Assembly (NCBI GenBank): GCA_002688315.1 | Contig: NZCN01000015.1 | Location: 2,137 to 66,136 of the forward strand | DNA length: 64,000 nucleotides | Source: Candidatus Woesearchaeota archaeon | Lineage (GTDB): Archaea; Nanobdellota; Nanobdellia; Woesearchaeales; UBA10216 | Direction: 5' to 3' | Shown: one piece after another, positions 143 to 63,926 of the stretch | Layout of the letters: each line of letters opens with the position of its first letter | Position numbering within the stretch: position 1 is the stretch's first letter | Program-made: the position numbers and the translations under genes | Notes under the pieces: model-generated | Database searches by the model: none | What the model was told of the DNA's origin: nothing | Seen by the model: the letters and a program-made list of their open reading frames with translations, nothing else

Positions 143-227
143 GGGCCTGTGATCTAGTGGCTATGATGTCGCCTTTACACGGCGAATATCCCCAGTTCGA
201 ATTTTAGCGAAAGTCTGGGCAGGCCCA
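143..227 (+). tRNA. tRNA-Val(UAC) with a 12-nt T-loop intron (202..213, position 59/60)
   Basis: Hand-folded cloverleaf. Acceptor GGGCCTG/CAGGCCC, anticodon stem TCGCC/GGCGA, loop TTTACAC. T-stem CCCAG/CTGGG enclosing TTCGAA + ttttagcgaaag + T. Discriminator A, no encoded CCA. Confidence 0.85.
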
Positions 228-232
228 TTTAA

Positions 233-2801: not shown

Positions 2802-3242
2802 ATGATTTACGATAATATGCCAAAACTTTGGGTTAGTGCAGTTACGTTCCCGCAAGCAGGTAGCATAGGTTGGATGGGAAATATCGTCACTGTAGTGGCT
2901 GATTATTTTATGAAACCAATATCGTCTGGTTTAGATGAATGTGCTGGAAAAGAATGCGGTGATCAAGTTATTTTTCCTGGAACAATTACAACACTTGCAA
3001 GCGATGAAGGCAAGCCAGAAGATATTGCCAGATTATTGAGAAACAGCAATGTTCAAGCTAAATTGCCTAATGCTATGGGAATAGCTGTGCATGTAGACGG
3101 CGTGAACAATCCGTTTGATGTGGTAAATGACGCAAGAGACTACCTTCAAAATCAAGGTTATTCAGTAGGCCCTTCTGTCGGAGTAGCTGTTGGCGATCAC
3201 AGCAGAATGAGAACTCACGTTGTTCTTCCGATTGAGCAATAG
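2802..3242 (+). CDS. hypothetical protein (146 aa)
   Basis: ORF preceded by the SD-like GGAAGGTG. Its lysine-poor composition is atypical for this window. No motif recognised. Confidence 0.5.
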   Translation: MIYDNMPKLWVSAVTFPQAGSIGWMGNIVTVVADYFMKPISSGLDECAGKECGDQVIFPGTITTLASDEGKPEDIARLLRNSNVQAKLPNAMGIAVHVDGVNNPFDVVNDARDYLQNQGYSVGPSVGVAVGDHSRMRTHVVLPIEQ

Positions 3243-3336: not shown

Positions 3337-3450
3337 GCCGGGATCGCATAATCTGGCATTGCGTAGCCCTGGAAACACGCATAGTCAGGCTATTTCCGTT
3401 GAGGATGTCTGGGTTCAAATTGCGAAAGCATGAAAGTCCCAGTCCCGGCG
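3337..3450 (+). tRNA. tRNA-Ser(GGA), class II, with two introns: anticodon 3375..3386 (37/38) and T-loop 3420..3436 (59/60)
   Basis: Acceptor GCCGGGA/TCCCGGC, G73, anticodon stem TAGCC/GGCTA, loop CTGGAA|A, long variable arm. T-arm CTGGG-TTCAAA|T-CCCAG. The T-loop intron contains a TGC-GAAA-GCA hairpin. Confidence 0.8.
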
Positions 3451-3507: not shown

Positions 3508-4461
3508 ATGAAAGGAATTAAGCTTATAGCCGGAACAGCAAGCAAAGAGCTTGCTAAAACTGTTGCAACGCGTCTTGGTGTAACTCTTGTTGATGCAGAC
3601 ATTGGAAAATTCCCTAATGGAGAAATACGAGTGGAACTAAAAGAATCTGTAAGAAAGCAGGATATTTTCATAATACAGTCAACCTGTCCTCCGGTTAACG
3701 ACAATCTAATGGAACTTCTTATCCTAATAGATGCGCTAAAAAGAGCTTCTGCTGGTTTTATAACAGTAATAATACCTTATTTTGGCTATTCAAAACAAGA
3801 TAAGAAAAAAACCGGACGAGAACCTATTTCCTCAAAACTTGTTGCAAGAATGCTTGAAATGGTTGGAGTAAAAAGAGTTGTAACTTTTGATTTGCACGCA
3901 ACCCAAATAGAAGGATTTTTTGACATACCTGTAGAGAATTTAACAGCCATTAACATGATAGCAGATTATTTCAAGAAAAATAATATTAAAGACACGGTTA
4001 TTGTTGCTCCAGACGCCGGAGGCGTAAAGCGAGCCAGAGATTTGGCAAATGCAATGAATGCAAACAGACTGGCAATAATTGATAAATATCGCGAAGATTT
4101 TACAAAAGCCACTGCAATGAATGTTGTAGGCAAAGTAGAAAATATGAACGCCATAATAATCGACGATTTCATTGATACCGGAGGAAGCATAGTTGAAGCT
4201 GTAAAAGCTGTTAAAAACCATAATGCAGCAAAAATATGGGTAGCATGCACCCATCCATTGTTTACCGAGCCTGCAACACAAAGACTCAAAGAATTAGATG
4301 AATTAGAAGAAGTAATAGTCACCGACACTATACCCTTAGCAAAAGAAAAAATGTTCAAAAAAGTAAGAGTTCTAAGCACTGCTGATATAATCAGTGATGT
4401 AATTCAAAGGATTAGTGGCGGTAAATCCTTGCACCAACACAGGCCTAATAATAAGCATTAG
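3508..4461 (+). CDS. prs: ribose-phosphate pyrophosphokinase (PRPP synthetase)
   Basis: Contains PYFGYSKQDKK, DLHATQIEGFF and the PRPP-binding loop IIDDFIDTGGS. Confidence 0.95.
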   Translation: MKGIKLIAGTASKELAKTVATRLGVTLVDADIGKFPNGEIRVELKESVRKQDIFIIQSTCPPVNDNLMELLILIDALKRASAGFITVIIPYFGYSKQDKKKTGREPISSKLVARMLEMVGVKRVVTFDLHATQIEGFFDIPVENLTAINMIADYFKKNNIKDTVIVAPDAGGVKRARDLANAMNANRLAIIDKYREDFTKATAMNVVGKVENMNAIIIDDFIDTGGSIVEAVKAVKNHNAAKIWVACTHPLFTEPATQRLKELDELEEVIVTDTIPLAKEKMFKKVRVLSTADIISDVIQRISGGKSLHQHRPNNKH

Positions 4462-6745: not shown

Positions 6746-7411
6746 CTATTTCTTAAATTCTATTTTATCATCTAAGTAAATGCCTTGGTGGAGGGTTACT
6801 GGACGCCAACTGTCAATGATTAATTTTGCGTTCAACCATTCTGCAAGTTCTTCTGAATTGCCAATAGTTGCAGATAGTCCGATTAATTGCATTTGAGGCA
6901 GTAATTGCTTTAGAATCGTAATGAGAATCTCTAATGTAGGGCCTCTGCCAGGGTCGTTAAGAAGATGAATCTCATCAATAACAACCACTTTAACTGATTT
7001 TATCCATGGAGTGTGATGGCGGAGGAGAGAGTCTAATTTTTCTGAAGTCATAAACAGCAAATCATAATTTGCTAAGTAAGAATCTGAAGAATCTAAATCA
7101 CCTGTAGAAATTGCTATCTTAATCAGGTTGCCGTAACGCTGCTTGAAATCTTTGTATTTTTCAGCTGCTAACGCTTTTAATGGAACAATATAAATTGCCT
7201 TGCCTTTTCCGTTTAATATAGCAGATAATGCTGCTAATTCAGCTATTAAAGTTTTGCCAGAAGCAGTTGGAGTGCAAACCAGCAAGTTTTTTTCTTCCAA
7301 AAGGCCTGCTTTTACTGACTTAACTTGAGCAGGACGCAATTCAGCTATGTTAGATGCTACAATAGTGTAAAGCTGCTGCGGTAACTTGTCTTTTAACTCT
7401 GTAACGTTCAT
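6746..7411 (-). CDS. Hel308/Ski2-like helicase, RecA1 domain only (truncated or split gene)
   Basis: Q-motif/motif I (RPAQ...TPTASGKT), Ia, II (DEIH) and III (SAT) are present. The ORF stops right after RPVTLHQGIY, at the RecA1/RecA2 boundary. No RecA2 or later domains lie downstream in any frame. Confidence 0.8.
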   Translation of the reverse strand: MNVTELKDKLPQQLYTIVASNIAELRPAQVKSVKAGLLEEKNLLVCTPTASGKTLIAELAALSAILNGKGKAIYIVPLKALAAEKYKDFKQRYGNLIKIAISTGDLDSSDSYLANYDLLFMTSEKLDSLLRHHTPWIKSVKVVVIDEIHLLNDPGRGPTLEILITILKQLLPQMQLIGLSATIGNSEELAEWLNAKLIIDSWRPVTLHQGIYLDDKIEFKK

Positions 7412-7706
7412 AACATAAAGAACTTTATAGAAGTTTAAATGGTTTTTGAATAAAAATTAAAAAAAAGGCGAAAGTGATAAACGCCTTAACTATACCAACA
7501 GTCTAAGAGTTGTAGAGTAGAGCTCATTAATAAACTTTTTGGAAATTAACCCGAAAATATTTTAATTTTGTTGGAAGATTTTCAGGAGCTTTAAATACGC
7601 TTTGAAAATTTCTACAGTAAAACCGTAAGATTTCTAAGTTTTCTGAAAATTTTGCGGAAAATCAGCAGTTGAACTTAATAAGAAGCAATAACAGAAATAG
7701 TAATAC

Positions 7707-18806: not shown

Positions 18807-20006
18807 ATGGCAGAACTTATTTTTGAAGATTTGAAGTTCGAGGAGAAAGAGGATAAGATAGTTGTAACTTTTCTCGATAACTTTTATTTTGAGGTTGGAA
18901 AGGAAGCGTTTAATGATGCCAAATTTGATTCTAACAAAGTAGAATTTGCTGGGTTAAGCGAAGAAGAAGCAAGGAATAAGATAAATGTTATTCTTGACAA
19001 TGGTTTTGAGAATTTGAAGAGTAAAATAACCAACAAGCCAACTATTTACGTTAACAAATACTTTGGTTTGCCTCTTATTGGCAATGCTGGCTTTGGAATA
19101 ACTGACAGAAACAGCAACATGATAGAGATAAAACCGGTTACAGGCTGTAATATGAACTGCAGTTTCTGTTCTGTTGATGAAGGATTAACAAGCAAAAAAA
19201 CTTCAGAGTTGGTTATTGACAAAGATTATTTAGTGGAAGAAACAAAAAAGCTAATAGAAACAAAAGAGTGCGAGATGCACATTACAATAAATGCGCATGG
19301 CGAACCAACATTATACAAGCCAATGCCCGGATTGATTAAAGATTTATCGCAAATCAAGAATGTGAAAACAGTTTCTTTGATAACAAACGGTACATTACTA
19401 ACAGAAGAATACATAGATAAGTTAGAAAAAGCTGGACTAACCAAATTAAATGTCTCTCTTAATGCTGTTAGTGAAAAAATGGCTAAAATTCTTGAAGGAA
19501 GCGGAAAATATGATGTTAATCACGTCAAAAGAATTTGCGAATATGCTGCTAAAAAGATAGAAGTTATATTAGCTCCTGTATTTGTTCCTGGCTATAATGA
19601 TAATGAGCTTGGAGAAATGATTAAATTCGCCAAGAAGATTGGAGCGAAAATGGGCGTTCAGAACTTTCTTTATTACAAGCAAGGAAGAAAGCCTGCCAAT
19701 ACAGAACAAATGCCTTGGGAGCAGTTTTACGAAATGCTTAAGAAGCTGGAAAAAGAAAATGATTTTAAGCTTATGTTAGATGAAAGCGATTTTGGAATAA
19801 AGAAACTAAAGCCGCTTCCAAAACCATTCAAAAAAGACAATGTTGTTGATGCAGTGATAAAATGCGCTGGAAGATACCCAAACGAAGTAATTGCTGCTTC
19901 AGACAATAGAAATATAACTGTTACAAACTTCAAAGGAAACAACAAAAAAGTCAAAATAAAAATAACTGGAGATAAACATAACATATTTTACGGGAAAGCA
20001 CTATGA
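18807..20006 (+). CDS. radical SAM protein
   Basis: The CNMNCSFC (CxxxCxxC) cluster motif sits after an approximately 110-aa N-terminal domain. It overlaps the next gene by 4 nt. Confidence 0.85.
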   Translation: MAELIFEDLKFEEKEDKIVVTFLDNFYFEVGKEAFNDAKFDSNKVEFAGLSEEEARNKINVILDNGFENLKSKITNKPTIYVNKYFGLPLIGNAGFGITDRNSNMIEIKPVTGCNMNCSFCSVDEGLTSKKTSELVIDKDYLVEETKKLIETKECEMHITINAHGEPTLYKPMPGLIKDLSQIKNVKTVSLITNGTLLTEEYIDKLEKAGLTKLNVSLNAVSEKMAKILEGSGKYDVNHVKRICEYAAKKIEVILAPVFVPGYNDNELGEMIKFAKKIGAKMGVQNFLYYKQGRKPANTEQMPWEQFYEMLKKLEKENDFKLMLDESDFGIKKLKPLPKPFKKDNVVDAVIKCAGRYPNEVIAASDNRNITVTNFKGNNKKVKIKITGDKHNIFYGKAL

Positions 20007-21403
20007 AATTAAAAAGCATTGGATTGATTGTGTTTGTGATTGCAGCGCTGGTATTTCTCAGTGTTAAATTAAGTGCAATAGGTTATTCTGCGAGTGATGA
20101 GAATACTTATTACAAAATGGGGGAAATGGTTAGTGAAGGAAAGATGCCTTACAAAGATTTCTTTTTTGCTCATCCGCCACTGCAGATTTATTTGTATGCT
20201 GTTGTGTTTATGCTTTTTGGGTTTAATATTGGTGTTTTGAAATTTCTTTCTGCAATTGCAGCTGTGGTGACTGCTTATTATATTTTCAAGCTGCTTAATG
20301 AAAAATCAGAAGCTGCTGGAATGATTGGAACTGTATTATTTTTCTTCTCTCACTCTGTGCTGCTTTTCACGAGTTTTCCGACAGGAACTGAGTTTGTTAT
20401 GATGTTCTCAATGGCAGGATTTTATTATTTCCATAAAAAAAAGAGTGTAAAAAGCGGCTTGTTGTTTGGAATAGGAGCATTAACAGGATTGCTTGCATTA
20501 ATACCATTTGCTGTGATAAGTGTATGGCTTTTTATCAGGAATTTGAATGAGCTGAGAAAATTCTTAACAGCTTTCCTTGCTGTGTTTGTGATTGTAAACG
20601 CGTTTTTTGTGATAATAAGTAAAGGCGCATACATAACTCAAATAATCACTTACAACCTGCTTAAGCCAGAAGGAGTTATGGACAAATCTGCTCTAATTTC
20701 CAGGGTTATCGGCAAGAACTGGCTGATATTAGCTGCTGCTGCAACAGCTGTTTTTGCAAAAGGAAAATTCAGCAGCAGAGTAGCTGTTCCTTTGTTCATA
20801 GTAATAGCGTATGCTGCTGCGTTTACATTCATGAAAACAATTTTTGATTACTACTCGCTGGCTGTTGTTCCGTTCCTTGCTGTTCTTGCCGGACAAGGCT
20901 TGGCAGGAACTATGCAAAGTTTTAGGTTAAAGAAATTTTTTGCTTACCCAGCAATTGCTATTGTTATTCTTGTTATAAGTTATTTTAACTATAGCGACTT
21001 TTCTTCTAATGATACGTATGACTTTGAAACTGCAAGGGAAATTGCGAAGTTTGTGGAAGAAAATTCTGATAAAAACGAACTTATTTTTGGAGAAGATGCA
21101 ACAACGCCTTTAATTTCCTTGCTTTCTCGTCGAGATATTGCGCTTGATTTTGTAGACAGCAATGACTTAAGATTCAGAACAGGACTGGAAGATTCTGAAA
21201 AAACACTAACTGAACTTAAAGAAAACTTAAGATTTTTTATTGTTAGAAGATTGAATTTTGGGGAAGGGGTTAAGCTAACTTATGGATTAACTACGCTTCC
21301 TGAATTTGATTTGTTTCTGAAGGAAGAATGTGAAGTTGCTAAGAAATTTGAAACACCATGGAATGGTAAAATGAAAGAATATTATGTTTACGATTGTGAT
21401 TGA
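20003..21403 (+). CDS. polytopic membrane glycosyltransferase (GT-C fold, PMT/ArnT-like)
   Basis: About 10 TM segments. An early loop reads DENTYYKMG...PYKDFFFAHPPL, and the C-terminal domain is soluble. Confidence 0.65.
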   Translation: MKLKSIGLIVFVIAALVFLSVKLSAIGYSASDENTYYKMGEMVSEGKMPYKDFFFAHPPLQIYLYAVVFMLFGFNIGVLKFLSAIAAVVTAYYIFKLLNEKSEAAGMIGTVLFFFSHSVLLFTSFPTGTEFVMMFSMAGFYYFHKKKSVKSGLLFGIGALTGLLALIPFAVISVWLFIRNLNELRKFLTAFLAVFVIVNAFFVIISKGAYITQIITYNLLKPEGVMDKSALISRVIGKNWLILAAAATAVFAKGKFSSRVAVPLFIVIAYAAAFTFMKTIFDYYSLAVVPFLAVLAGQGLAGTMQSFRLKKFFAYPAIAIVILVISYFNYSDFSSNDTYDFETAREIAKFVEENSDKNELIFGEDATTPLISLLSRRDIALDFVDSNDLRFRTGLEDSEKTLTELKENLRFFIVRRLNFGEGVKLTYGLTTLPEFDLFLKEECEVAKKFETPWNGKMKEYYVYDCD

Positions 21404-26365: not shown

Positions 26366-27814
26366 TCAAAACTTTTCTAAGTTTGTAATTAATTTAAGAA
26401 AATCTTTCCCTTCTTTACTGATAGATATAAGAAAAGGATTTCTATTTATACCTAAACCCTCTATTTTGATATATGTTTTGTACTGCTTTTTTCTTAATGT
26501 ATCTAAAATGGAGTCCTCTCTAATTTTTAATAACATAGATAATTTTTTCACAGTTATACGATGATTTTTATTTATAACTGACAAATATTTAATCATAGTT
26601 TTTGTAAAACTGTGGTTCAAGAAACCTTCAAATGCTCTCTTTCTTCTTACACTATGGGTTCTAAAAGGAACTACTTCATTAAATAGAAAGGTTTTGAAGA
26701 AAGAATATAAGTTAGTCCATCCTTCAATTACAAAAGTTTTTGATTGTTGATCTTTGCATAATTCTACTATGCCAGTCTGACGCAATATTTTTTCAAAAAG
26801 CGTTTTCTCTTGCATATTGTAGCTGAGAGTTATTTTATGAAGACCTTTCTTACCAATCTGCGCACCGCCTTCTGCAGCTAATAAACCATTTAACGCGTGA
26901 AAAGCATTTTGTTTCTCCATGTTATTTTTTATTTTTTCAAAAACGTATCTGAAAATTAAAGAGACAATTGTTTTATCCATCACAATTCGCAAATTACCTG
27001 CAGGACTAGTTCTTAATATGCACTTAGAGTTTGAGTAGAATTGCTGTTCGTTTAAACATACTGCATTCTTCCAATATTCTTTTGCATAGAGACCATGTCT
27101 TAAATCATGCAATAAAATCCTCGATCTCCACACAGCTTTTGGTAATCGGAATATTTTCTCAAACTCATCAATCACAAACACATGGAGCTCTGGTAATTTA
27201 TTAGCAAAATATAGTTTATACGCGTAGTGTCCATCCCCATGGACTAAAAAGAATAACTCAATCAAATTTGAAGATAACTGAATAAATCTTGGAATTGTAA
27301 TAGGTTCTTTTTGTTTACGATAAATAGTAATATAGTTTTTAGCTCTAGGAATAATTTTGACATTTTTGTCGTAATGTACTATTTGTGCCAAGTCTATCTG
27401 TTGGTAACTTTCTGGAAGACATTTATCTCTTGCTATAATCTTTACAAAAATATTTTCGTTATTCTGTATGTTGAGTTTATCAACAATGATTTGGGGAATA
27501 TGTAGCTTTCTCCATTTATACATTTTAGTTACAAATTCAACTTCTTGATTTTCTCTACAAATCCTAACAAGCAGCACATCAGTTTCTTTTATCCCTTCCG
27601 ATTTCCTAGATTCTGCAGGATAAGTAATAAATGGACGACCGGTCCCCATTCTAAGAGGAGATTTAAATTCACACATAGGTCTTTCCTGTTTGTATAATCT
27701 GGCAAAGTCAACAGGATGGGCAATTTCTTTATAGTAAACTCTTTTGTCCTCTATATCTGCGTAAAATAGACTTCCTCTTTGTTTTGTTAAAGCTTGGTTA
27801 ATAATTGTTTTCAT
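26366..27814 (-). CDS. free-standing LAGLIDADG-like protein with extra N- and C-terminal (wHTH-like) regions
   Basis: Two candidate LAGLIDADG motifs, ELFFLVHGDGHY and LNGLLAAEGGAQ, lie about 130 aa apart. The SD-like GAGGT lies 5 nt upstream of the ATG. The motifs are divergent. Confidence 0.55.
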   Translation of the reverse strand: MKTIINQALTKQRGSLFYADIEDKRVYYKEIAHPVDFARLYKQERPMCEFKSPLRMGTGRPFITYPAESRKSEGIKETDVLLVRICRENQEVEFVTKMYKWRKLHIPQIIVDKLNIQNNENIFVKIIARDKCLPESYQQIDLAQIVHYDKNVKIIPRAKNYITIYRKQKEPITIPRFIQLSSNLIELFFLVHGDGHYAYKLYFANKLPELHVFVIDEFEKIFRLPKAVWRSRILLHDLRHGLYAKEYWKNAVCLNEQQFYSNSKCILRTSPAGNLRIVMDKTIVSLIFRYVFEKIKNNMEKQNAFHALNGLLAAEGGAQIGKKGLHKITLSYNMQEKTLFEKILRQTGIVELCKDQQSKTFVIEGWTNLYSFFKTFLFNEVVPFRTHSVRRKRAFEGFLNHSFTKTMIKYLSVINKNHRITVKKLSMLLKIREDSILDTLRKKQYKTYIKIEGLGINRNPFLISISKEGKDFLKLITNLEKF

Positions 27815-28097
27815 TTTTTACCTCTGGAAACCCCATCTAACGTGAGATTTCCTTCATTCAGTAAGGAAATCTCTTTTTGGAGTGAAGGGCATGTATAGCC
27901 AAGCTGCGTAAATGATTTTAGGCCGAAAAGCCGACCCTCGAAGAGGGGAAAATCATAATTTAGCAGCTCTGCGTGTGTCTTGAACTCACTTTAACACCAA
28001 TAGAACAATTACTTAATAAGGGCTACGCCTCCATGTCCAGTGGCCAATGGGAAATATTCTTAAAGGAAAGCTTAATCCAAAGGAGTGGAGGTGGGTG

Positions 28098-28329
28098 ATG
28101 AAAAAAAATTTATTACCATTCGAACGATTTGAAAGAGAAGTAATCATGAAAAAAGAAGCGGAAACTAGCAGCAGTTACGGTTGCAACCCTGACGAAAGAA
28201 GCGCTGACGAGCTAATTAATTTTGGCATCATAAACCTTGACAAACCTTCAGGACCAAGCTCACATCAAGTTTCTGCTTATATCAAACAAATTCTTGGCAT
28301 TAAAAAAGCCGGTCACTCTGGGACTCTAG
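28098..28329 (+). CDS. cbf5: tRNA/rRNA pseudouridine synthase Cbf5, exon 1 (ends in the first two bases of the catalytic Asp codon)
   Basis: Contains ...INLDKPSGPSSHQVSAYIKQILGIKKAGHSGTL. Start re-picked to ATG 28098, just after GGAGGTG. The unspliced frame runs into a stop at 28332. Confidence 0.85.
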
Positions 28330-28342
28330 AATAAAAGGAGAC
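28330..28342 (+). other. 13-nt BHB-type mini-intron in cbf5 (aataaaaggagac)
   Basis: Removal restores GTL-D-PKVTG and a 331-codon frame. The flanks form GGGA-CTCT / GGAG-aca-TCCC, with 3-nt bulges on opposite strands of a 4-bp helix. Both cuts fall after the second bulge nucleotide. Confidence 0.7.
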
Positions 28343-29103
28343 ATCCCAAAGTAACAGGAGTTCTGCCAGTAGCTTTAGGCAGAGCCACAAGAATAGTTCA
28401 AGTGCTTCTTACAGCAGGAAAAGAATACGTGTGCGTAATGCAGCTCCACAAAAACGTTGAAGAGGTAAAGCTTAGAAAAGTATGCGAAGAATTTGTTGGA
28501 AAAATAAAACAATTACCTCCTGTAAAAAGCGCTGTGGTAAGAAAACTTAGGGAAAGAACTATCTATTATATAGACATAATTGAAATCAGCGGAAAATACG
28601 TGCTGTTCAGAGTTGGTTGTGAAGCAGGAACATACATAAGAAAACTTGTTTCAGACATTGGAAGCAAAATAGGAGGAGCGCACATGCTTGAGTTAAGAAG
28701 AACCAAAGCAGGACCGTTCAAAGAAGAAGAAATTTTCACCTTACATGATGTCATGGACAGCTACCATTATTATAGAAAAGAATCAAACGAAAAATATTTG
28801 AGAAAAGTCATACTTCCAATAGAAGCAGCAGTTGCGCACCTTCCAAAAGTTTGGATTCTTGACGGAGCAGTTGATAGTGTCTGCCATGGAATGAGCTTAA
28901 AAATGCCTGGCATAAGCAAATTTGAAAACCACATAAGAAAAAAAGATATTGTAGCAATTATGACGCTGAAAAACGAGCTTGTTTGCTACGGGATAGCAAC
29001 TGTCGACTCGAAAAAAATGCAGACAGGAAGAACAGGAGTAACTGTAAAACCAGACGCTGTTTTTATGAAGATAGGAACTTATCCTTCTAAGAAACATGAA
29101 TAA
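28343..29103 (+). CDS. cbf5: Cbf5, exon 2 (TruB core continuation and PUA domain)
   Basis: (D)PKVTGVLPVALGRATRIVQVLLTAGKEYVCVMQLH...AGTYIRKLVSDIG...LPKVWILDGAVDSVCHG... matches archaeal Cbf5 along its whole length. Confidence 0.9.
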
Positions 29104-39315: not shown

Positions 39316-40767
39316 CTACCAATTAAATCGGGTATACTGTGACTGTGGTCGATTTTTCATTATGATAGACCCAGAAGGCGCACCATAAAGTGCCAACTTA
39401 ACACGTTGAGGGTCGCCTCCAACCAATTGAACACGGGAAGGGGTTGATCCTCTCTCAAGATCGTCCAACCCATTAGATTCTAAGACATGTCCGCCTTCCA
39501 ATCTTTTTCTATCTGCACTCCAACCTTCTGTGCTGATATTATTACGAAACTGATTTGTAGAAACTCTTTTTATAGGAACAGCATCGCCTCGAAATTGCTC
39601 AGGAAGACCTTCAATCGCTTCTGTTGGCAAATTAGGATCTCTGCTGTAAATCCCATCTGGCGTGTATTTCATAAATATAGCCGGACCACCTAAAGCTCTG
39701 GCAACTGAAATCGACAGTTTATCTGATTGGTTAGGATCAATAGGTTCTGGCACGCCTTTCCCTTGTCTAGCAGGCATACTTAATATAATAGGAATATATC
39801 CCAGCCAATCGCTTTGAGCTGCAGCAACAACGTCCCATGCATTAATTCTGCCTTCAGGCAAATCAGGCCCTTCTTCTCCGATTATACGAACAGGCAAATC
39901 AGGATGGCGACTAGTAATGATTTGCTTAACTAATGCGGCTGCTTGCCCATATGCGCCCCATCCTATATCAGTGGCATTATCACCAATGCTTGCAAGGACA
40001 CCTTTATACGGTTCACCAAATAAACCAGAGCCTACTGTTAAAACAGGATTATTGCCGTTTTTATAAAAATCAACTATAACATCAGTCATTTCTCCAAAAA
40101 TTTCTACTGCAACTGCATCTCCTCGAGCAAAAAGATCCAAATAACTCCCACCGACTTTTAAAGATCGCGATATTGGAACATTAGGATCTGGTCTACGTCT
40201 TCCAGACATTTCTAAATCTCTTCTGTAAAATCCATGCACTAAAGCATCGACAGAAGCAATATCATCAGGCATATAAGCTTCCCTTGATGGCAAAAATCTT
40301 TCAATTTTTTCCACAATACTCTTGGCAAGATCATCAACAGTATCTTCTAAAAGAGGAACAGGTACGCCTAAATAAGGTGTAAGGTCAAAAACAGGCAGGT
40401 CAGGGTGCTTCATTAGATCTTGAACCCATGTGCGGCTTTTGCGGCCTTCTCCTCTTTGCATGTCAGGACCAACAATGGTTTGTACACCAAGGTAACCGTG
40501 AGCTCTTAATAATTCAACCAAATCAACAGCTGTTGGAACCGTTGCCACAGAAGGTGTTTCAGGGCCCAAGTTAGACTCGCCGAGCTTGAACTCCAAAGAA
40601 CGAGCTAGATATCCAAAGCCAGGTCGTCTATCTGTAACAACAACTATAGTTGGGGTAAGTGTTTGCACTATACCGTCAACTGAATAAAACTGATTATCTG
40701 AATAGGCTTTATCGTTCATTGTGAAAAAGTCTGAAAGGGGATTAGGTCTTGCAGTAGACAATGTCAT
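39316..40767 (-). CDS. unknown N-terminal domain fused to an amino-acid-kinase (AAK) fold domain
   Basis: From about residue 213: LKVGGSYLD..., VLTVGSGLFGE, ...PAIFMKYTPDGIYSRDPN follows the AAK/UMP-kinase pattern. The composition is Pro/Asp/Gly/Arg-rich and Lys-poor, and the DNA is visibly GC-richer. An SD GAGGT lies upstream. Confidence 0.6.
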   Translation of the reverse strand: MTLSTARPNPLSDFFTMNDKAYSDNQFYSVDGIVQTLTPTIVVVTDRRPGFGYLARSLEFKLGESNLGPETPSVATVPTAVDLVELLRAHGYLGVQTIVGPDMQRGEGRKSRTWVQDLMKHPDLPVFDLTPYLGVPVPLLEDTVDDLAKSIVEKIERFLPSREAYMPDDIASVDALVHGFYRRDLEMSGRRRPDPNVPISRSLKVGGSYLDLFARGDAVAVEIFGEMTDVIVDFYKNGNNPVLTVGSGLFGEPYKGVLASIGDNATDIGWGAYGQAAALVKQIITSRHPDLPVRIIGEEGPDLPEGRINAWDVVAAAQSDWLGYIPIILSMPARQGKGVPEPIDPNQSDKLSISVARALGGPAIFMKYTPDGIYSRDPNLPTEAIEGLPEQFRGDAVPIKRVSTNQFRNNISTEGWSADRKRLEGGHVLESNGLDDLERGSTPSRVQLVGGDPQRVKLALYGAPSGSIIMKNRPQSQYTRFNW

Positions 40768-60414: not shown

Positions 60415-63030
60415 TTAAGCAGCCTTTGCTTTTTCCTCTATTCTTTCCATTATTCGTGCATGCATTCTCTTAAGGAATTCTATCTTATCTTCTATCTTGA
60501 GAACATCTGTGTGGGATTCCAAAACTATTTTGAATGCGAATGGGGAAGGCAGGTCTGTCTGGACATTTTTTATCTTTATCTTCCTGTCTTCAATGGCTTT
60601 AAGCAAGTTTTTTGTAGTAGGCATATCCATTAAATCCTCCAAAACTTCACGCCTTGCTTCTTTGAGAATACAAAAATCAGGAGAAACTCTCTTAACAGCA
60701 TTTATTAAAATCATTGAAGAAACTTGTTGTCTACCAACACGTTTTCGCCTTCCTTTATAGTTTCTAAGAATCATCAAAGAACGAGCAGCGCAATGGCGGA
60801 ATCGCCTTTTCAGTATTTCAGTTTTTTCAATAGCATTATTCATTAGCAACTCCATTTTTTCTGATTTAATCAGCTTAAGAGCCGCAGAAACATTGACGTT
60901 TTTTTCATAAGAAACGTAAAAGCCATTATCAGTTATTCCTAGCTCAACATCTTTGCGTTGTGAGCGTGCTATTACAAAAGCAACAGCTCTGCTAAGTGCA
61001 TCATTAACGCGCCTGCCATAAAGAGAATGCACAACAACGTGTTTCCGCCCTCTGTCAGTAAAGTTTTCAATTATTATTTTTTTATCAGTAGGTATTTCTG
61101 CATAAAGATATTGCTCACGCAAATAGTTATAGATTGAACTAGCAGTGTTCTTGTCAACGTAAAGATAATCATTAATGAACTTTAAGACTTCTTTCTTTGT
61201 TTTGTTATGGTTGAATTTTTCCTCCATCAAACGCCTGAATTTGCCAATCTCTAACGCCAAGTCAAAACTTAACGGAAGCATTTCAGAAAACCATGAAGGG
61301 ATAGTAGGAGCCCTGTAAACACTTGCATTAACATAAGCAACCATTCCTTTAGCGTAAAGAAATTCGTATTTATCACCGCCAAGAACAAAAACATCAGTTT
61401 TTCTTAATCGTTCAAGGAACGACTCATCAATCTTCCCTACAACATGATCTGTACCTGCAATCTTTACAGAAACAAAAGTTTCATCAGGAATTGTGCCTAT
61501 ATTAGTCATGTAAATAACACGGCTCATGCGACCTTTTCTGCCAATTAGTCCTGTTTCTTCATCAACCCAAATTTTTGCATAGATATGCCGGTCTTCAAGA
61601 GAAATGTGCTTGCCGCTCAGGTAATCCAAAACTTCATTGAAATCTTTTAATGTTAAGTCTTTATAGCAGTAACTTTTTTTAATCACATTGTATAAGTCAG
61701 TCTTGTGAACTTTAGAAGCTATTGCAATTCCATAAATTTGTTGAGCTAAAACATCCAAAGCATTTTCTGGTATATGAATACGATCAATCTTTTTTTCAAT
61801 AGCAGATTTCAAAAGAACAGAGCATTCAATCATATCATCCCTATCAAGAACAATAATCCTGCCTTTTGAAACAGAATGTAATTTGTGACCGCTTCTTCCA
61901 ATACGCTGTAAAGCGCGCGCAACAGATTTAGGACTGCCTAGAAGAATCACTAAATCAATATAGCCAATATCAATGCCCAGTTCAAGGCTTGTAGAGCTTA
62001 CAACAACCTTTAATTTTCCTTCTCTTAGCCTCTTTTCAATACTATGACGATATTCTTTTGAAAGAGAACCATGATGAGCGCCGATAGTAGGATCATCAGA
62101 AGCGTAACGTTTTGGAAATTTTTCTTTCAAATGGTGTATAACACGCTCAGTAGCAGCTCTGGTATTTGTGAAAATAAGAGTTGTTTTATGAGTTTGGATT
62201 AAATCATCAATCAAAGAATACATTGAATCCTGCATTTTACCATGCTCAACATTAATCAAATCAGGAACAGGAGACAAAACTTTCAAATCCGTTTTCTTAA
62301 CAAACTGAACATTGCAAATCTTGCAGTTTCTTGGCACTTCATTTTCATTTCCAACAAGAAAATGTGCAATTTTATCCAAAGGCGCTATGGTTGCTGACAA
62401 ACCAATTCTAGTCATTGCAGGAGAAAGATGTTGAAGACGCTCCAAGCTAAGAGAAAGATGCACTCCACGTTTGTTTTCTGCCAAAGCATGCACTTCATCA
62501 ACAATACACCATTCTACTGCCTGAAGCAAATCTATGAAACGATAACTGCTCAGAACAATTGCAAGACTTTCAGGAGTTGTTATGAGAATGTGTGGAGGTT
62601 TTTTCAGCATCTTTGATTTTTCAGAAGCTGACGTATCACCAGTTCTAACAGCAACTCTGATTCCAAGTTTTTTGCCAGCTATTTTTTCCATTTCTTTCAA
62701 AGGTTCAATCAAGTTGAGTTGCACATCGTTGCTGAGCGCTTTCAAAGGCGAGATATATATACAATAAACTTTATCTTCAAGTATGTCGCTTTCTGAAGCA
62801 TTTATAAGCTCATTAAGAATTGAAAGAAATCCAGTAAGAGTTTTTGTTGCACCAGTAGGAGCAGAAACTAAAATATTATTTCTGCTGTGAATCTCCATAA
62901 CTCCAAATAATTGAGGAAGACTAAATTCTTTAAACTTAGAGAAAAACCATTTTTTAATAAGAGGGTTTAATATGTTGCGCAATTCTTGCGGTTTATTAGA
63001 ATTTAATTTGTATTCTATCATCACTACCAA
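60415..63030 (-). CDS. lhr: Lhr-type large DEAD/DEAH-box helicase
   Basis: Contains SAPTGATKTL, DEVH, SAT and QRIGRSGH, followed by the Lhr-specific winged-helix / domain 4 region (DEAD_assoc-like). Confidence 0.92.
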   Translation of the reverse strand: MVVMIEYKLNSNKPQELRNILNPLIKKWFFSKFKEFSLPQLFGVMEIHSRNNILVSAPTGATKTLTGFLSILNELINASESDILEDKVYCIYISPLKALSNDVQLNLIEPLKEMEKIAGKKLGIRVAVRTGDTSASEKSKMLKKPPHILITTPESLAIVLSSYRFIDLLQAVEWCIVDEVHALAENKRGVHLSLSLERLQHLSPAMTRIGLSATIAPLDKIAHFLVGNENEVPRNCKICNVQFVKKTDLKVLSPVPDLINVEHGKMQDSMYSLIDDLIQTHKTTLIFTNTRAATERVIHHLKEKFPKRYASDDPTIGAHHGSLSKEYRHSIEKRLREGKLKVVVSSTSLELGIDIGYIDLVILLGSPKSVARALQRIGRSGHKLHSVSKGRIIVLDRDDMIECSVLLKSAIEKKIDRIHIPENALDVLAQQIYGIAIASKVHKTDLYNVIKKSYCYKDLTLKDFNEVLDYLSGKHISLEDRHIYAKIWVDEETGLIGRKGRMSRVIYMTNIGTIPDETFVSVKIAGTDHVVGKIDESFLERLRKTDVFVLGGDKYEFLYAKGMVAYVNASVYRAPTIPSWFSEMLPLSFDLALEIGKFRRLMEEKFNHNKTKKEVLKFINDYLYVDKNTASSIYNYLREQYLYAEIPTDKKIIIENFTDRGRKHVVVHSLYGRRVNDALSRAVAFVIARSQRKDVELGITDNGFYVSYEKNVNVSAALKLIKSEKMELLMNNAIEKTEILKRRFRHCAARSLMILRNYKGRRKRVGRQQVSSMILINAVKRVSPDFCILKEARREVLEDLMDMPTTKNLLKAIEDRKIKIKNVQTDLPSPFAFKIVLESHTDVLKIEDKIEFLKRMHARIMERIEEKAKAA

Positions 63031-63926
63031 CCCAGCTTATAAGTGTTAACTAATTTGTACATTTTCCTCTTAATTGTGAAACCAATCATGTCTTTAAATA
63101 ACTTGAGATTCTCTTTTCGATTAATATATAATTTCGGATATTTTTTCTGTTGAAACTTATTCTCTATGCCTAGTTTACTAAGCAGTTTAGATACGTCAAT
63201 CAACCCTTTGCGACTACCTGAAAGAATCATTACATAATACTTGCTAACCCAACCATCACTATCGTATAGCCCTTTCAAAAAAGTAGAAATTATTTTCTTG
63301 TTATTTGAATTTAGAATTTCTTGTGGTACGCGCCAAGTCATAGTTCTAAAAGTTCCGTAGCGTAACAAATCTTTTGAAAGCAACATTGCAGAAACTTTGA
63401 ATAAAAAAGTGTTCCTATTAGTCTTGTAAACATAAATGTATTTAATCCCGTACACAGCTTCCATACATCGTGTGAATTCTTTAATAAATTCTTCATCCTT
63501 TCTTATTTCGAGTGCGATAACTTTATTGTTAATGTAACCATCTCCAGCAAGGACCCCTAAGATATATGCTTTTTCTAAAGTCAAATTTTTATATTTTTTC
63601 AGAGGCCTTTTTAATTTTAAATTAGCTAATTCTTTCTTAATTTGCGGAGTGTTCATGGATTCTTTATGCGTTCTTACTTTAATTCCATAGGATCGAAGCC
63701 AGTTTATAACTATAATCGTAGAAACTTTAGATTTAAGACCGATATCACTTGCGCTTAGTTTTTGCTTTACGTAAAGATCGTACAAAGTCTTCTTTTCTAA
63801 TTTAGGTTTAGTTTTAAATTGCGTTCTTTCTTGATTATAAGGAATATTGTGATGATGTATCCAGCCAGAAATAGTTGCTTCAGAAATGGTTATTCCAAAC
63901 TTTTTATTAATTTCTTTTCTTATCAA
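63024..63926 (-). CDS. free-standing double-motif LAGLIDADG endonuclease-like protein with N-terminal HTH region
   Basis: The motifs are YILGVLAGDGY and FLKGLYDSDGW, about 95 aa apart. Its stop overlaps the lhr start by 7 nt. The TTG start in the track is uncertain, and the N terminus may lie near the window edge. Confidence 0.8.
   Translation of the reverse strand: MIRKEINKKFGITISEATISGWIHHHNIPYNQERTQFKTKPKLEKKTLYDLYVKQKLSASDIGLKSKVSTIIVINWLRSYGIKVRTHKESMNTPQIKKELANLKLKRPLKKYKNLTLEKAYILGVLAGDGYINNKVIALEIRKDEEFIKEFTRCMEAVYGIKYIYVYKTNRNTFLFKVSAMLLSKDLLRYGTFRTMTWRVPQEILNSNNKKIISTFLKGLYDSDGWVSKYYVMILSGSRKGLIDVSKLLSKLGIENKFQQKKYPKLYINRKENLKLFKDMIGFTIKRKMYKLVNTYKLGW

Follow-up and report, generated by a model that had tools for sequence, protein, structure and literature searches.

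A predicted 13-nucleotide intron in the catalytic aspartate codon of a woesearchaeal cbf5 gene and its LAGLIDADG-like neighbour

The cbf5 gene of a marine Candidatus Woesearchaeota archaeon (contig NZCN01000015.1) raises the question of how the essential RNA-modification enzyme Cbf5 is made from a gene whose reading frame breaks in the codon of its catalytic aspartate. The gene is located in a stretch of 64,000 nucleotides (nt) with a G+C content of 36.7%, in this report referred to as the window. The nearest Cbf5 proteins bear the name Candidatus Woesearchaeota. The 13 nt at positions 28330..28342 are very probably a genuine intron of the archaeal endonuclease type (bulge-helix-bulge family) in the cbf5 pre-mRNA. 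This reading is supported because removal of the 13 nt restores the frame and the catalytic motif, the site is shared with the cbf5 introns of Crenarchaeota, the structure covaries and both exons are under purifying selection.

The split cbf5 gene and its spliced product

The open reading frame (ORF) 28047..28334 terminates with ...KKAGHSGTLE followed by TAA, and translation one frame over gives ...HPKVTGVLPVALGRATRIVQ. The sequence of 28311..28350 is GGTCACTCTGGGACTCTAG-AATAAAAGGAGAC-ATCCCAAA. Deletion of 28330..28342 (AATAAAAGGAGAC) joins cta g/at ccc (a slash marks a cut or junction within a codon or bulge), which reads L-D-P and rebuilds the motif GHSGTLDPKVTG. Both the frame break with its resumption one frame over and the 13-nt deletion had been proposed from inspection of the DNA alone (hereafter the sequence-only reading) and are found as described, with correct coordinates. 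Starting from the ATG at 28098, the spliced gene is an ORF of 993 nt, corresponding to 330 codons and the stop, with the catalytic Asp as residue 78. The features of the locus are as follows.

28098..28329, + strand: cbf5 exon 1, encoding M1..L77 and the first base (G) of the Asp78 codon; DKCLD domain and start of TruB_N
28330..28342, + strand: predicted cbf5 intron of 13 nt, AAUAAAAGGAGAC; its removal restores the frame and GTLDP
28332..28334, + strand: in-frame TAA within the intron, at which an unspliced reading would end after ...GTLE
28343..29103, + strand: cbf5 exon 2, from AT of the Asp78 codon to the stop; TruB catalytic core and PUA domain
28320..28347, + strand: bulge-helix-loop splicing motif, predicted from the minimum-energy fold, family-wide pairing and compensatory changes

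The sequence-only reading had placed the junction at GA/T. The joined product stands, but the placement of the cuts does not: the bulge rule gives G/AT, with cuts after 28329 and 28342. Both placements lead to the same product because 28330 and 28343 are both A.

The spliced protein of 330 amino acids (aa) scores 443.7 bits against the NCBIfam equivalog NF003280 (cut-off 242). Its alignment with the Pyrococcus Cbf5 structures 2aus and 3lwo (E ~1e-110) is gapless across the junction, where aghsgtldpkvtgvlpval of the query is matched to AGHGGTLDPKVSGVLPVAL of Pyrococcus and Asp78 corresponds to the Asp of Pyrococcus GGTLD. Gene callers present exon 1 as a separate 78-aa DKCLD protein and the ATG-started part of exon 2 as a 221-aa protein (P0026). 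A second cbf5 locus, which the sequence-only reading had named as a sign against splicing, is absent from the 64-kb window.

The RNA motif and the proposed course of splicing

The minimum-energy fold of 28320..28347 is ((((((((.........))))...)))) with -6.0 kcal/mol. The outer helix (28320-28323 and 28344-28347, GGGA paired with UCCC) is stacked on the central helix (28324-28327 and 28337-28340, CUCU paired with GGAG), which includes one G-U pair. The predicted 5' cut is located in the 9-nt loop 28328-28336, two bases in and after 28329 (AG/A), and the predicted 3' cut in the bulge 28341-28343 (ACA), after 28342 (AC/A). The intron is made up of 1 nt of the 5' bulge, a 6-nt loop, GGAG (28337..28340) and 2 nt of the 3' bulge.

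The element had been proposed to be a bulge-helix-bulge. The outer and central helices and the 3' bulge of that proposal are present in the fold; the 5' bulge, on the other hand, is not, and AGA opens the 9-nt loop instead. The cbf5 motif is a relaxed bulge-helix-loop without inner helix rather than a full bulge-helix-bulge. Such a relaxed form is known for non-canonical archaeal introns (PMC5829648).

In the proposed mechanism, GGGA (Gly GGG and the A of Thr) would pair with UCCC (the U of Asp GAU and Pro CCC), and CUCU of the exon (Thr and Leu codons) would pair with GGAG of the intron. EndA would cut the loop after G28329, at a distance of two bases 3' of the central helix, and the 3-nt bulge after its second base, C28342. 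RtcB would then join the exons. Ligation would recreate the GAU of the catalytic Asp78, and the full 330-aa Cbf5 would be made; translation of unspliced mRNA would stop at UAA 28332..28334 and yield the 78-aa fragment only. We infer cleavage, ligation and the dependence of Cbf5 activity on splicing from the crenarchaeal precedent.

Introns in tRNA genes of the same window

ARAGORN and Rfam detect four tRNAs in the window, which are the only matches of the Rfam scan. Two more tRNAs are found after removal of short inserts.

143..229, + strand: tRNA-Val(TAC) with a 12-nt T-loop (59/60) intron at 202..213; called by ARAGORN after its removal
3337..3450, + strand: tRNA-Ser(GGA) with introns at 3375..3386 (12 nt, canonical 37/38 position) and 3420..3436 (17 nt, T-loop)

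The introns 202..213 and 3420..3436, to which the sequence-only reading had pointed as parallels, are real. The intron region of tRNA-Val folds as (((((((((........))))...))))), which is the same bulge-helix-loop shape as in cbf5. The tRNA-Ser(GGA) is detected only with both introns removed. The 12-nt tRNA-Val intron of like geometry and the two-intron tRNA-Ser thus suggest, indirectly, that the host processes bulge-helix-loop substrates of such size. EndA and RtcB presumably act on both the tRNA and the cbf5 introns. In DPANN, loop-bearing forms of EndA are associated with disrupted tRNA genes (PMC5829648).

The call of tRNA-Ile(TAT) at 7706..7794 has an unusually long extra arm (ttactgtaccaacagt), which is odd for Ile. 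It might hide a non-canonical intron or be a mis-call.

The insert in close relatives

In all of the best 119 full-length relatives (60-86% identity) the G..GT.DP motif is uninterrupted. The codons at the site differ synonymously in intron-less relatives (GGA ACA CTC GAT CCG, GGC ACG CTT GAC CCA and others), and the synonymous codons of the close ones are unable to form the helices. The site sequence of L206, one of these intron-less close relatives, is GGAACACTCGATCCGAAAGTGACTGG.

A search with exon 2 alone retrieved short Cbf5 fragments, including P0122, P0124, P0123 and P0128. The loci of P0122 and P0124 (L212, L214 and L215; two NCBI metagenome-assembled genomes, MAGs; ~76% aa identity) read GGGACTCTAG-AATAATCGGAGAA-ATCCC. 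They contain a homologous 13-nt insert, AAUAAUCGGAGAA, of which 10 of the 13 positions equal those of the window insert. The differences in L212 and L214 are confined to the loop and the bulge, and GGAG is kept. P0128 (L216) has a 12-nt insert, AATAAAGGAGAA, and P0123 is intron-less.

Between the window and L212 or L214 the synonymous divergence (dS) is >1.4 and thus saturated, and the ratio of nonsynonymous to synonymous divergence (dN/dS) is 0.05-0.13 in both exons. All 15 helix-forming exon bases are identical. Conserved helix bases together with a low dN/dS therefore point to selection on RNA structure in a functional gene, the opposite of decay. The relatives' loci, whose alignment the sequence-only reading had proposed, fall into two kinds: those with a clean, intron-less site and those with an insert at precisely this site, in which the helices and covarying pairs are kept. 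Random frameshifts, which it had named as a refuting sign, are not among them. In a neighbour-joining tree, the window pairs with the intron-less P0001, and L212/L214 pair with the intron-less P0003/P0004. The presence of the intron is therefore patchy even among close relatives.

Distribution across genomes and metagenomes

Among 80 GTDB loci fetched with the spliced protein, 14 carry an insert at the same G/AT. Thirteen of these are from Bathyarchaeia (18, 21, 30 or 33 nt, all in frame) and one is from Jordarchaeales (30 nt). The inserts fold as the full motif GGGA-CUCU-AGA-[hairpin]-AGAG-AAA-UCCC, and the window intron corresponds to this design minus the inner hairpin. The scan of genome contigs with the spliced protein returned no match to the own genome of the window and no relative above 62% identity.

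Metagenomes were scanned for 8-17 nt between GGGACNYTNG and ATCC..., and at least 119 stretches with inserts of 11-17 nt were found. Removal of the insert yields a junction-spanning ORF of at least 300 aa in most of the matches listed; shorter restored ORFs are mostly located on short loci where the contig end cuts the gene. About 40 of the matches listed are nearest to Woesearchaeota, Nanoarchaeota or an unclassified low-GC archaeon (locus G+C 0.27-0.39) and about 38 are nearest to Bathyarchaeia, the rest being poorly assigned. Many of these best hits reach only 45-69% against a small labelled set without Sulfolobales or Desulfurococcales, and 'Asgard-like' and similar bins at this level carry no taxonomic assignment. 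All sequence-level predictions for an endonuclease-spliced intron hold. The intron is not confined to its host, as inserts of 11-17 nt at this site are common in metagenomes.

The central helix was inspected in 96 distinct junctions from genomes and from the metagenome matches listed. All 384 of its 384 cells pair. Pair 2 is C-G in 61 junctions, U-A in 27, G-C in five, A-U in two and U-G in one; pair 3 is C-G, U-A or U-G, and two pairs show double changes. If the partner is slid by one to three bases, pairing drops to 40-65%. In a formal count of 46 distinct 22-mers the central helix is 100% paired with 31 doubly changed cells, and the observed covariation score is reached in none of 500 shuffles. 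The intron-side partners are the sole independent test of pairing in the metagenome set, and they pass it.

An in-frame stop is present inside 72 of the 96 distinct introns, compared to 24.7 +/- 3.9 after loop shuffling. These stops are mostly UAA at intron codon 2-3, GAA-TAA of the window among them, and are also found in introns of a length divisible by three.

Two cbf5 mini-introns are present in L217, a Woesearchaeota-like MAG (GCA_023265925.1), at about 3595..3614 and 3677..3708. The insert at the second site comprises 20 nt between the GPT and SH codons and folds as a bulge-helix-bulge. The insert in the Asp codon comprises 17 nt, and the cbf5 gene of L217 is also fused to a LAGLIDADG-like ORF. 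P0191 and P0221 terminate at the same GPT point as the second intron of L217.

Two observations from these searches stand apart. L066 (DATKLC010000122.1), labelled Candidatus Krumholzibacteriaceae bacterium, carries a typical archaeal cbf5, probably as the result of a binning error in the public record. On viral contigs the intron pattern gave only one repeated match, in a phage family, which was rejected as a chance match.

Alternatives to splicing

Several points weigh against an intron at 28330..28342. The cbf5 helix is weak (-6 kcal/mol with the one G-U pair) and has no inner helix. The bare 8-bp geometry is present at 71 sites of the window compared to 49-68 sites in shuffled copies and was rejected as a signal. 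This geometry is no commoner than expected by chance, and the weight of the case is therefore carried by the frame, the catalytic codon and the homologous sites. Furthermore, the metagenome pattern fixed exon bases, so that conservation of the outer helix is partly imposed by the search. No gene for EndA or RtcB was found in the 64-kb window by Pfam searches of 58 of the 59 selected ORFs (the 59th, cbf5, was scanned against NCBIfam instead).

It is very unlikely that the 13 nt are a frameshifting insertion and that cbf5 is a decaying pseudogene in a reduced genome. Gene callers do split cbf5 into ORFs of 78 aa and 221 aa, and the closest full-length relatives are without the insert. However, both exons are otherwise intact, dN/dS between two intron-bearing lineages is about 0.05 and thus indicates strong purifying selection on them, and the insert is positioned exactly at the published intron site. 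Additionally, pairing is kept while loop bases change, and more than 100 independent cases have the same architecture with compensatory changes.

Still less probable is a bridging of the gap in translation by a programmed +1 frameshift or ribosomal bypass. The stop directly after the break resembles that at some recoding sites, but the frame of exon 2 reads ...NKRRHPKVTG upstream and thus offers no Asp at the catalytic position. The in-frame inserts of 18-33 nt at the same site in Bathyarchaeia also hold stops, and the covarying helix positions the cuts as the endonuclease rule demands.

An assembly or sequencing artefact, which could be suspected for a short, AT-rich insert in a window from a metagenome assembly, retains next to no probability: an artefact of a single assembly is excluded because the split gene (traced via P0026) is present on 13 contigs from NCBI, JGI, ENA and Logan, one of which (L001, located on a JGI contig of 35.7 kb) matches the window at 100% identity along 3666 nt that contain the insert, and a diverged version of the insert is found in related MAGs of another project.

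The LAGLIDADG-like gene adjoining cbf5

The sequence-only reading, which holds with respect to the intron itself, had not mentioned the gene adjoining cbf5.

26366..27814, - strand: 482-aa LAGLIDADG homing-endonuclease-like ORF, divergent from cbf5 and located between L31e and cbf5

Intron-less relatives have S19e, a 57-aa ORF, L31e and cbf5 in this order, without the 482-aa ORF. The encoded protein is identical to the NCBI entry 'hypothetical protein CMO88_04985 [Candidatus Woesearchaeota archaeon]' and is also present in the Tara Oceans catalogue. It has no Pfam match even at E <= 1, and a sequence search of the PDB returned nothing useful. Its identity came only from structure prediction and a fold search.

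The AlphaFold model of the 482-aa protein has a predicted local distance difference test score (pLDDT) of 92.1 and a predicted template modelling score (pTM) of 0.88. Foldseek aligns the N-terminus with PHS018 (AbrB-like fold) and the C-terminus with MarR-type winged helices. The centre is matched to E-DreI, I-DmoI, the archaeal intron-encoded I-Tsp061I, PI-SceI and the bI3 maturase, with probabilities of 0.97-1.0 and template modelling scores (target) of 0.45-0.52 for E-DreI, I-DmoI and I-Tsp061I. Weak Pfam signals agree with this layout of AbrB-like, LAGLIDADG and winged-helix parts, and four close family members have a weak match to LAGLIDADG_3. Distant members, obtained by a family-profile search, pass the LAGLIDADG_3 cut-off and have MazE/AbrB N-termini. 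An alignment of 40 members displays the motifs LIHGDGHY and LNGLLxAEGG with D194 and E315 invariant. According to the model, the 482-aa protein has a double LAGLIDADG core, an AbrB-like N-terminal domain and a C-terminal winged helix.

Homologues (31-58% identity) adjoin intron-bearing cbf5 genes in L088, L099, L104, L111, L128 and L134 as well as in L135, L141, L144, L176, L184 and L216. Further contexts with intron-bearing cbf5 are P0126, L217 and L218 (27-nt intron). The endonuclease-like gene is arranged either divergently or immediately upstream on the same strand.

The family comprises 74 members in a 90%-clustered database. Seventeen of these end in the DKCLD domain of Cbf5 and are in-frame fusions to cbf5 exon 1. 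Twelve of the fusions end exactly at the intron (...GHSGTLE, ...GTLVM, ...GTLEN, ...GTLAI or ...GTLAE) and three at KPxGPT, the second intron site; the other two break off right behind KPxGPT, probably where the contig ends, and are uninformative. None of the strong family matches has the length needed for a fusion to an uninterrupted Cbf5. In every context that can be judged (16 neighbourhoods and 15 of the 17 fusions) cbf5 is interrupted, and a homologue is present in none of 51 intron-less loci with at least 1.2 kb of upstream sequence.

A possible mobile unit

The intron and the LAGLIDADG-like gene may together form a mobile unit. This extension of the intron reading, which does not replace it, is regarded as possible but doubtful. 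Tentatively, the neighbour could be an active free-standing homing endonuclease, the target of which would be the conserved GTLDPKVTG-coding DNA of intron-less cbf5, although this is on balance unlikely. In such collaborative homing, the endonuclease would cut intron-less cbf5, and the mini-intron, by splitting the target, would protect its carrier. On repair, the cut allele would receive a copy of the endonuclease gene together with exon 1 and the intron.

Mobility is consistent with the invariance of D194 and E315 in the 40 aligned members, with the match of the AlphaFold model (pLDDT 92) to I-DmoI, I-Tsp061I, E-DreI and PI-SceI, and with the distant family members above the Pfam LAGLIDADG_3 cut-off. 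The interrupted cbf5 in all judgeable contexts (16 neighbourhoods, 15 of 17 fusions), the lack of the ORF in all 51 intron-less loci and the patchy presence of the intron among close relatives point in the same direction, and F-CphI with the psbA intron is a precedent (PMC6083498).

On the other hand, the divergences of the endonuclease and of Cbf5 correlate with r = 0.80 (36 non-independent pairs). The pair has therefore largely been passed on jointly, which fits a long co-inheritance better than a recent spread. L212, L214 and all Bathyarchaeia have the intron but no ORF in the sequenced flanks. Seen from the cbf5 side, the association is weak, with the ORF at seven of 28 low-GC intron-bearing loci compared to none of 15 intron-less loci (p = 0.08). 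A discordant similarity of exon 1 and exon 2, as a sign of recent co-conversion, was looked for in the data and not found. Alternatively, the 482-aa protein may act as a domesticated DNA-binding regulator or as a maturase-like helper, readings compatible with the long co-inheritance and the in-frame fusions to Cbf5.

To our knowledge, the movement of tiny protein-spliced introns has so far been unexplained, and the tight linkage to a LAGLIDADG-like gene suggests a concrete way, amenable to testing, in which they could move. If true, a mobile unit would give ORF-less archaeal bulge-helix-bulge introns their first proposed mechanism of mobility. The interruption of one and the same codon across Thermoproteota (Crenarchaeota, Bathyarchaeia), at least one Asgard genome and DPANN would then also be accounted for.

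Other features of the window

A 300-aa ORF with Pfam LAGLIDADG_3 (63024..63926, - strand) overlaps by 7 nt with the start of the gene for an 871-aa Lhr-type helicase (60415..63030, - strand). In this second case, too, an endonuclease-like gene is located immediately upstream of a conserved one. The ORFs 20003..21403 (+ strand, 466 aa), 39316..40767 (- strand, 483 aa) and 2802..3242 (+ strand, 146 aa) have no Pfam match and are mutually dissimilar. None of the 482-, 483-, 466- and 300-aa ORFs of the window is a paralogue of another. A 221-aa ORF at 6746..7411 (- strand) contains only the DEAD domain of a DEAD-box helicase, with no Helicase_C following, and may be split or truncated.

Comparison with known introns

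The crenarchaeal cbf5 pre-mRNA intron is reportedly the subject of earlier papers (Watanabe 2002, Yoshinari 2006). In Sulfolobales and Desulfurococcales this intron is located between letters 1 and 2 of the catalytic Asp codon; the known examples have a length of 16-44 bp, are cut between bulge residues 2 and 3 and mostly have unconventional motifs (Yokobori 2009, PMC2738675). Their splicing has been shown experimentally, and their patchy presence has been read as lineage-specific loss (PMC2738675). The sequence-only reading had left open whether the position of the window insert matches the crenarchaeal one; it is exactly the crenarchaeal site, with the same cut rule (PMC2738675). The gene, the insertion point, the cut rule, the relaxed motifs and the patchy presence are shared. 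The window intron differs in its host, a member of the Woesearchaeota (DPANN), in its length of 13 nt versus 16-44 bp, in its bulge-helix-loop form without inner helix and in the adjoining LAGLIDADG-like gene. Splicing is an experimental result for the crenarchaeal introns, whereas for the window it is deduced from sequence.

The kind of intron, the gene and the site are thus already known. A paper of 2020 names crenarchaeal cbf5 as the sole further case of a reported bulge-helix-bulge intron. In the openly searchable literature, which does not extend to subscription-only papers, cbf5 introns were found to be reported from Crenarchaeota only. Compared to that literature, the host phylum is new, as are the 13-nt size in a family that extends down to 11 nt (published minimum 16) and the spread over DPANN-like lineages, Bathyarchaeia and one Asgard genome. 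Additionally, the enrichment of in-frame stops, the second cbf5 intron site and the LAGLIDADG-like linkage are new. With the same cbf5 codon interrupted in Woesearchaeota, other DPANN-like lineages, Bathyarchaeia and at least one Asgard genome, by inserts of down to 11 nt, the origin of the cbf5 intron has to be re-thought: it is either much older or was repeatedly acquired at one hot spot. Furthermore, gene callers and annotation pipelines systematically mis-annotate Cbf5 as fragments or as a pseudogene in such genomes.

A group I or group II intron was rejected for the insert, which has 13 nt compared to the hundreds of bases of a ribozyme core. Non-canonical bulge-helix-loop tRNA introns (e.g. 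59/60) are represented in geometry and size by the 12-nt tRNA-Val intron of the window. Unlike these, the cbf5 substrate is an mRNA coding region, so that its helices are built of codons and synonymous sites are constrained. The intron of Haloferax volcanii HVO_1309 is a bulge-helix-bulge intron in a 5' untranslated region (PMC7714728). It shares with the window intron, as predicted, the nature of an EndA-type mRNA substrate outside Crenarchaeota, but in contrast to the latter interrupts neither a codon nor a catalytic residue.

Two systems are comparable with respect to the LAGLIDADG-like gene. F-CphI is a free-standing endonuclease adjoining the ORF-less group I intron of psbA in cyanophage S-PM2, and its cleavage activity has been demonstrated (Zeng 2009; PMC6083498). 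Common to both cases is a free-standing endonuclease-like gene beside a gene with an ORF-less intron at a highly conserved coding site. The psbA intron is a self-splicing group I ribozyme, whereas the window has a 13-nt element predicted to be spliced by proteins and a neighbour whose endonuclease activity is hypothetical.

The bulge-helix-bulge introns of crenarchaeal rRNA genes encode the LAGLIDADG endonucleases I-DmoI, I-PorI and I-Tsp061I. The combination of an endonuclease-spliced archaeal intron with a LAGLIDADG protein is shared with the window, and the 482-aa model has its structural matches among these enzymes. The rRNA introns are long and contain the endonuclease gene. The window intron, in contrast, is too short to encode anything, and the endonuclease-like genes of its family are positioned outside, upstream of the host gene or fused to it.

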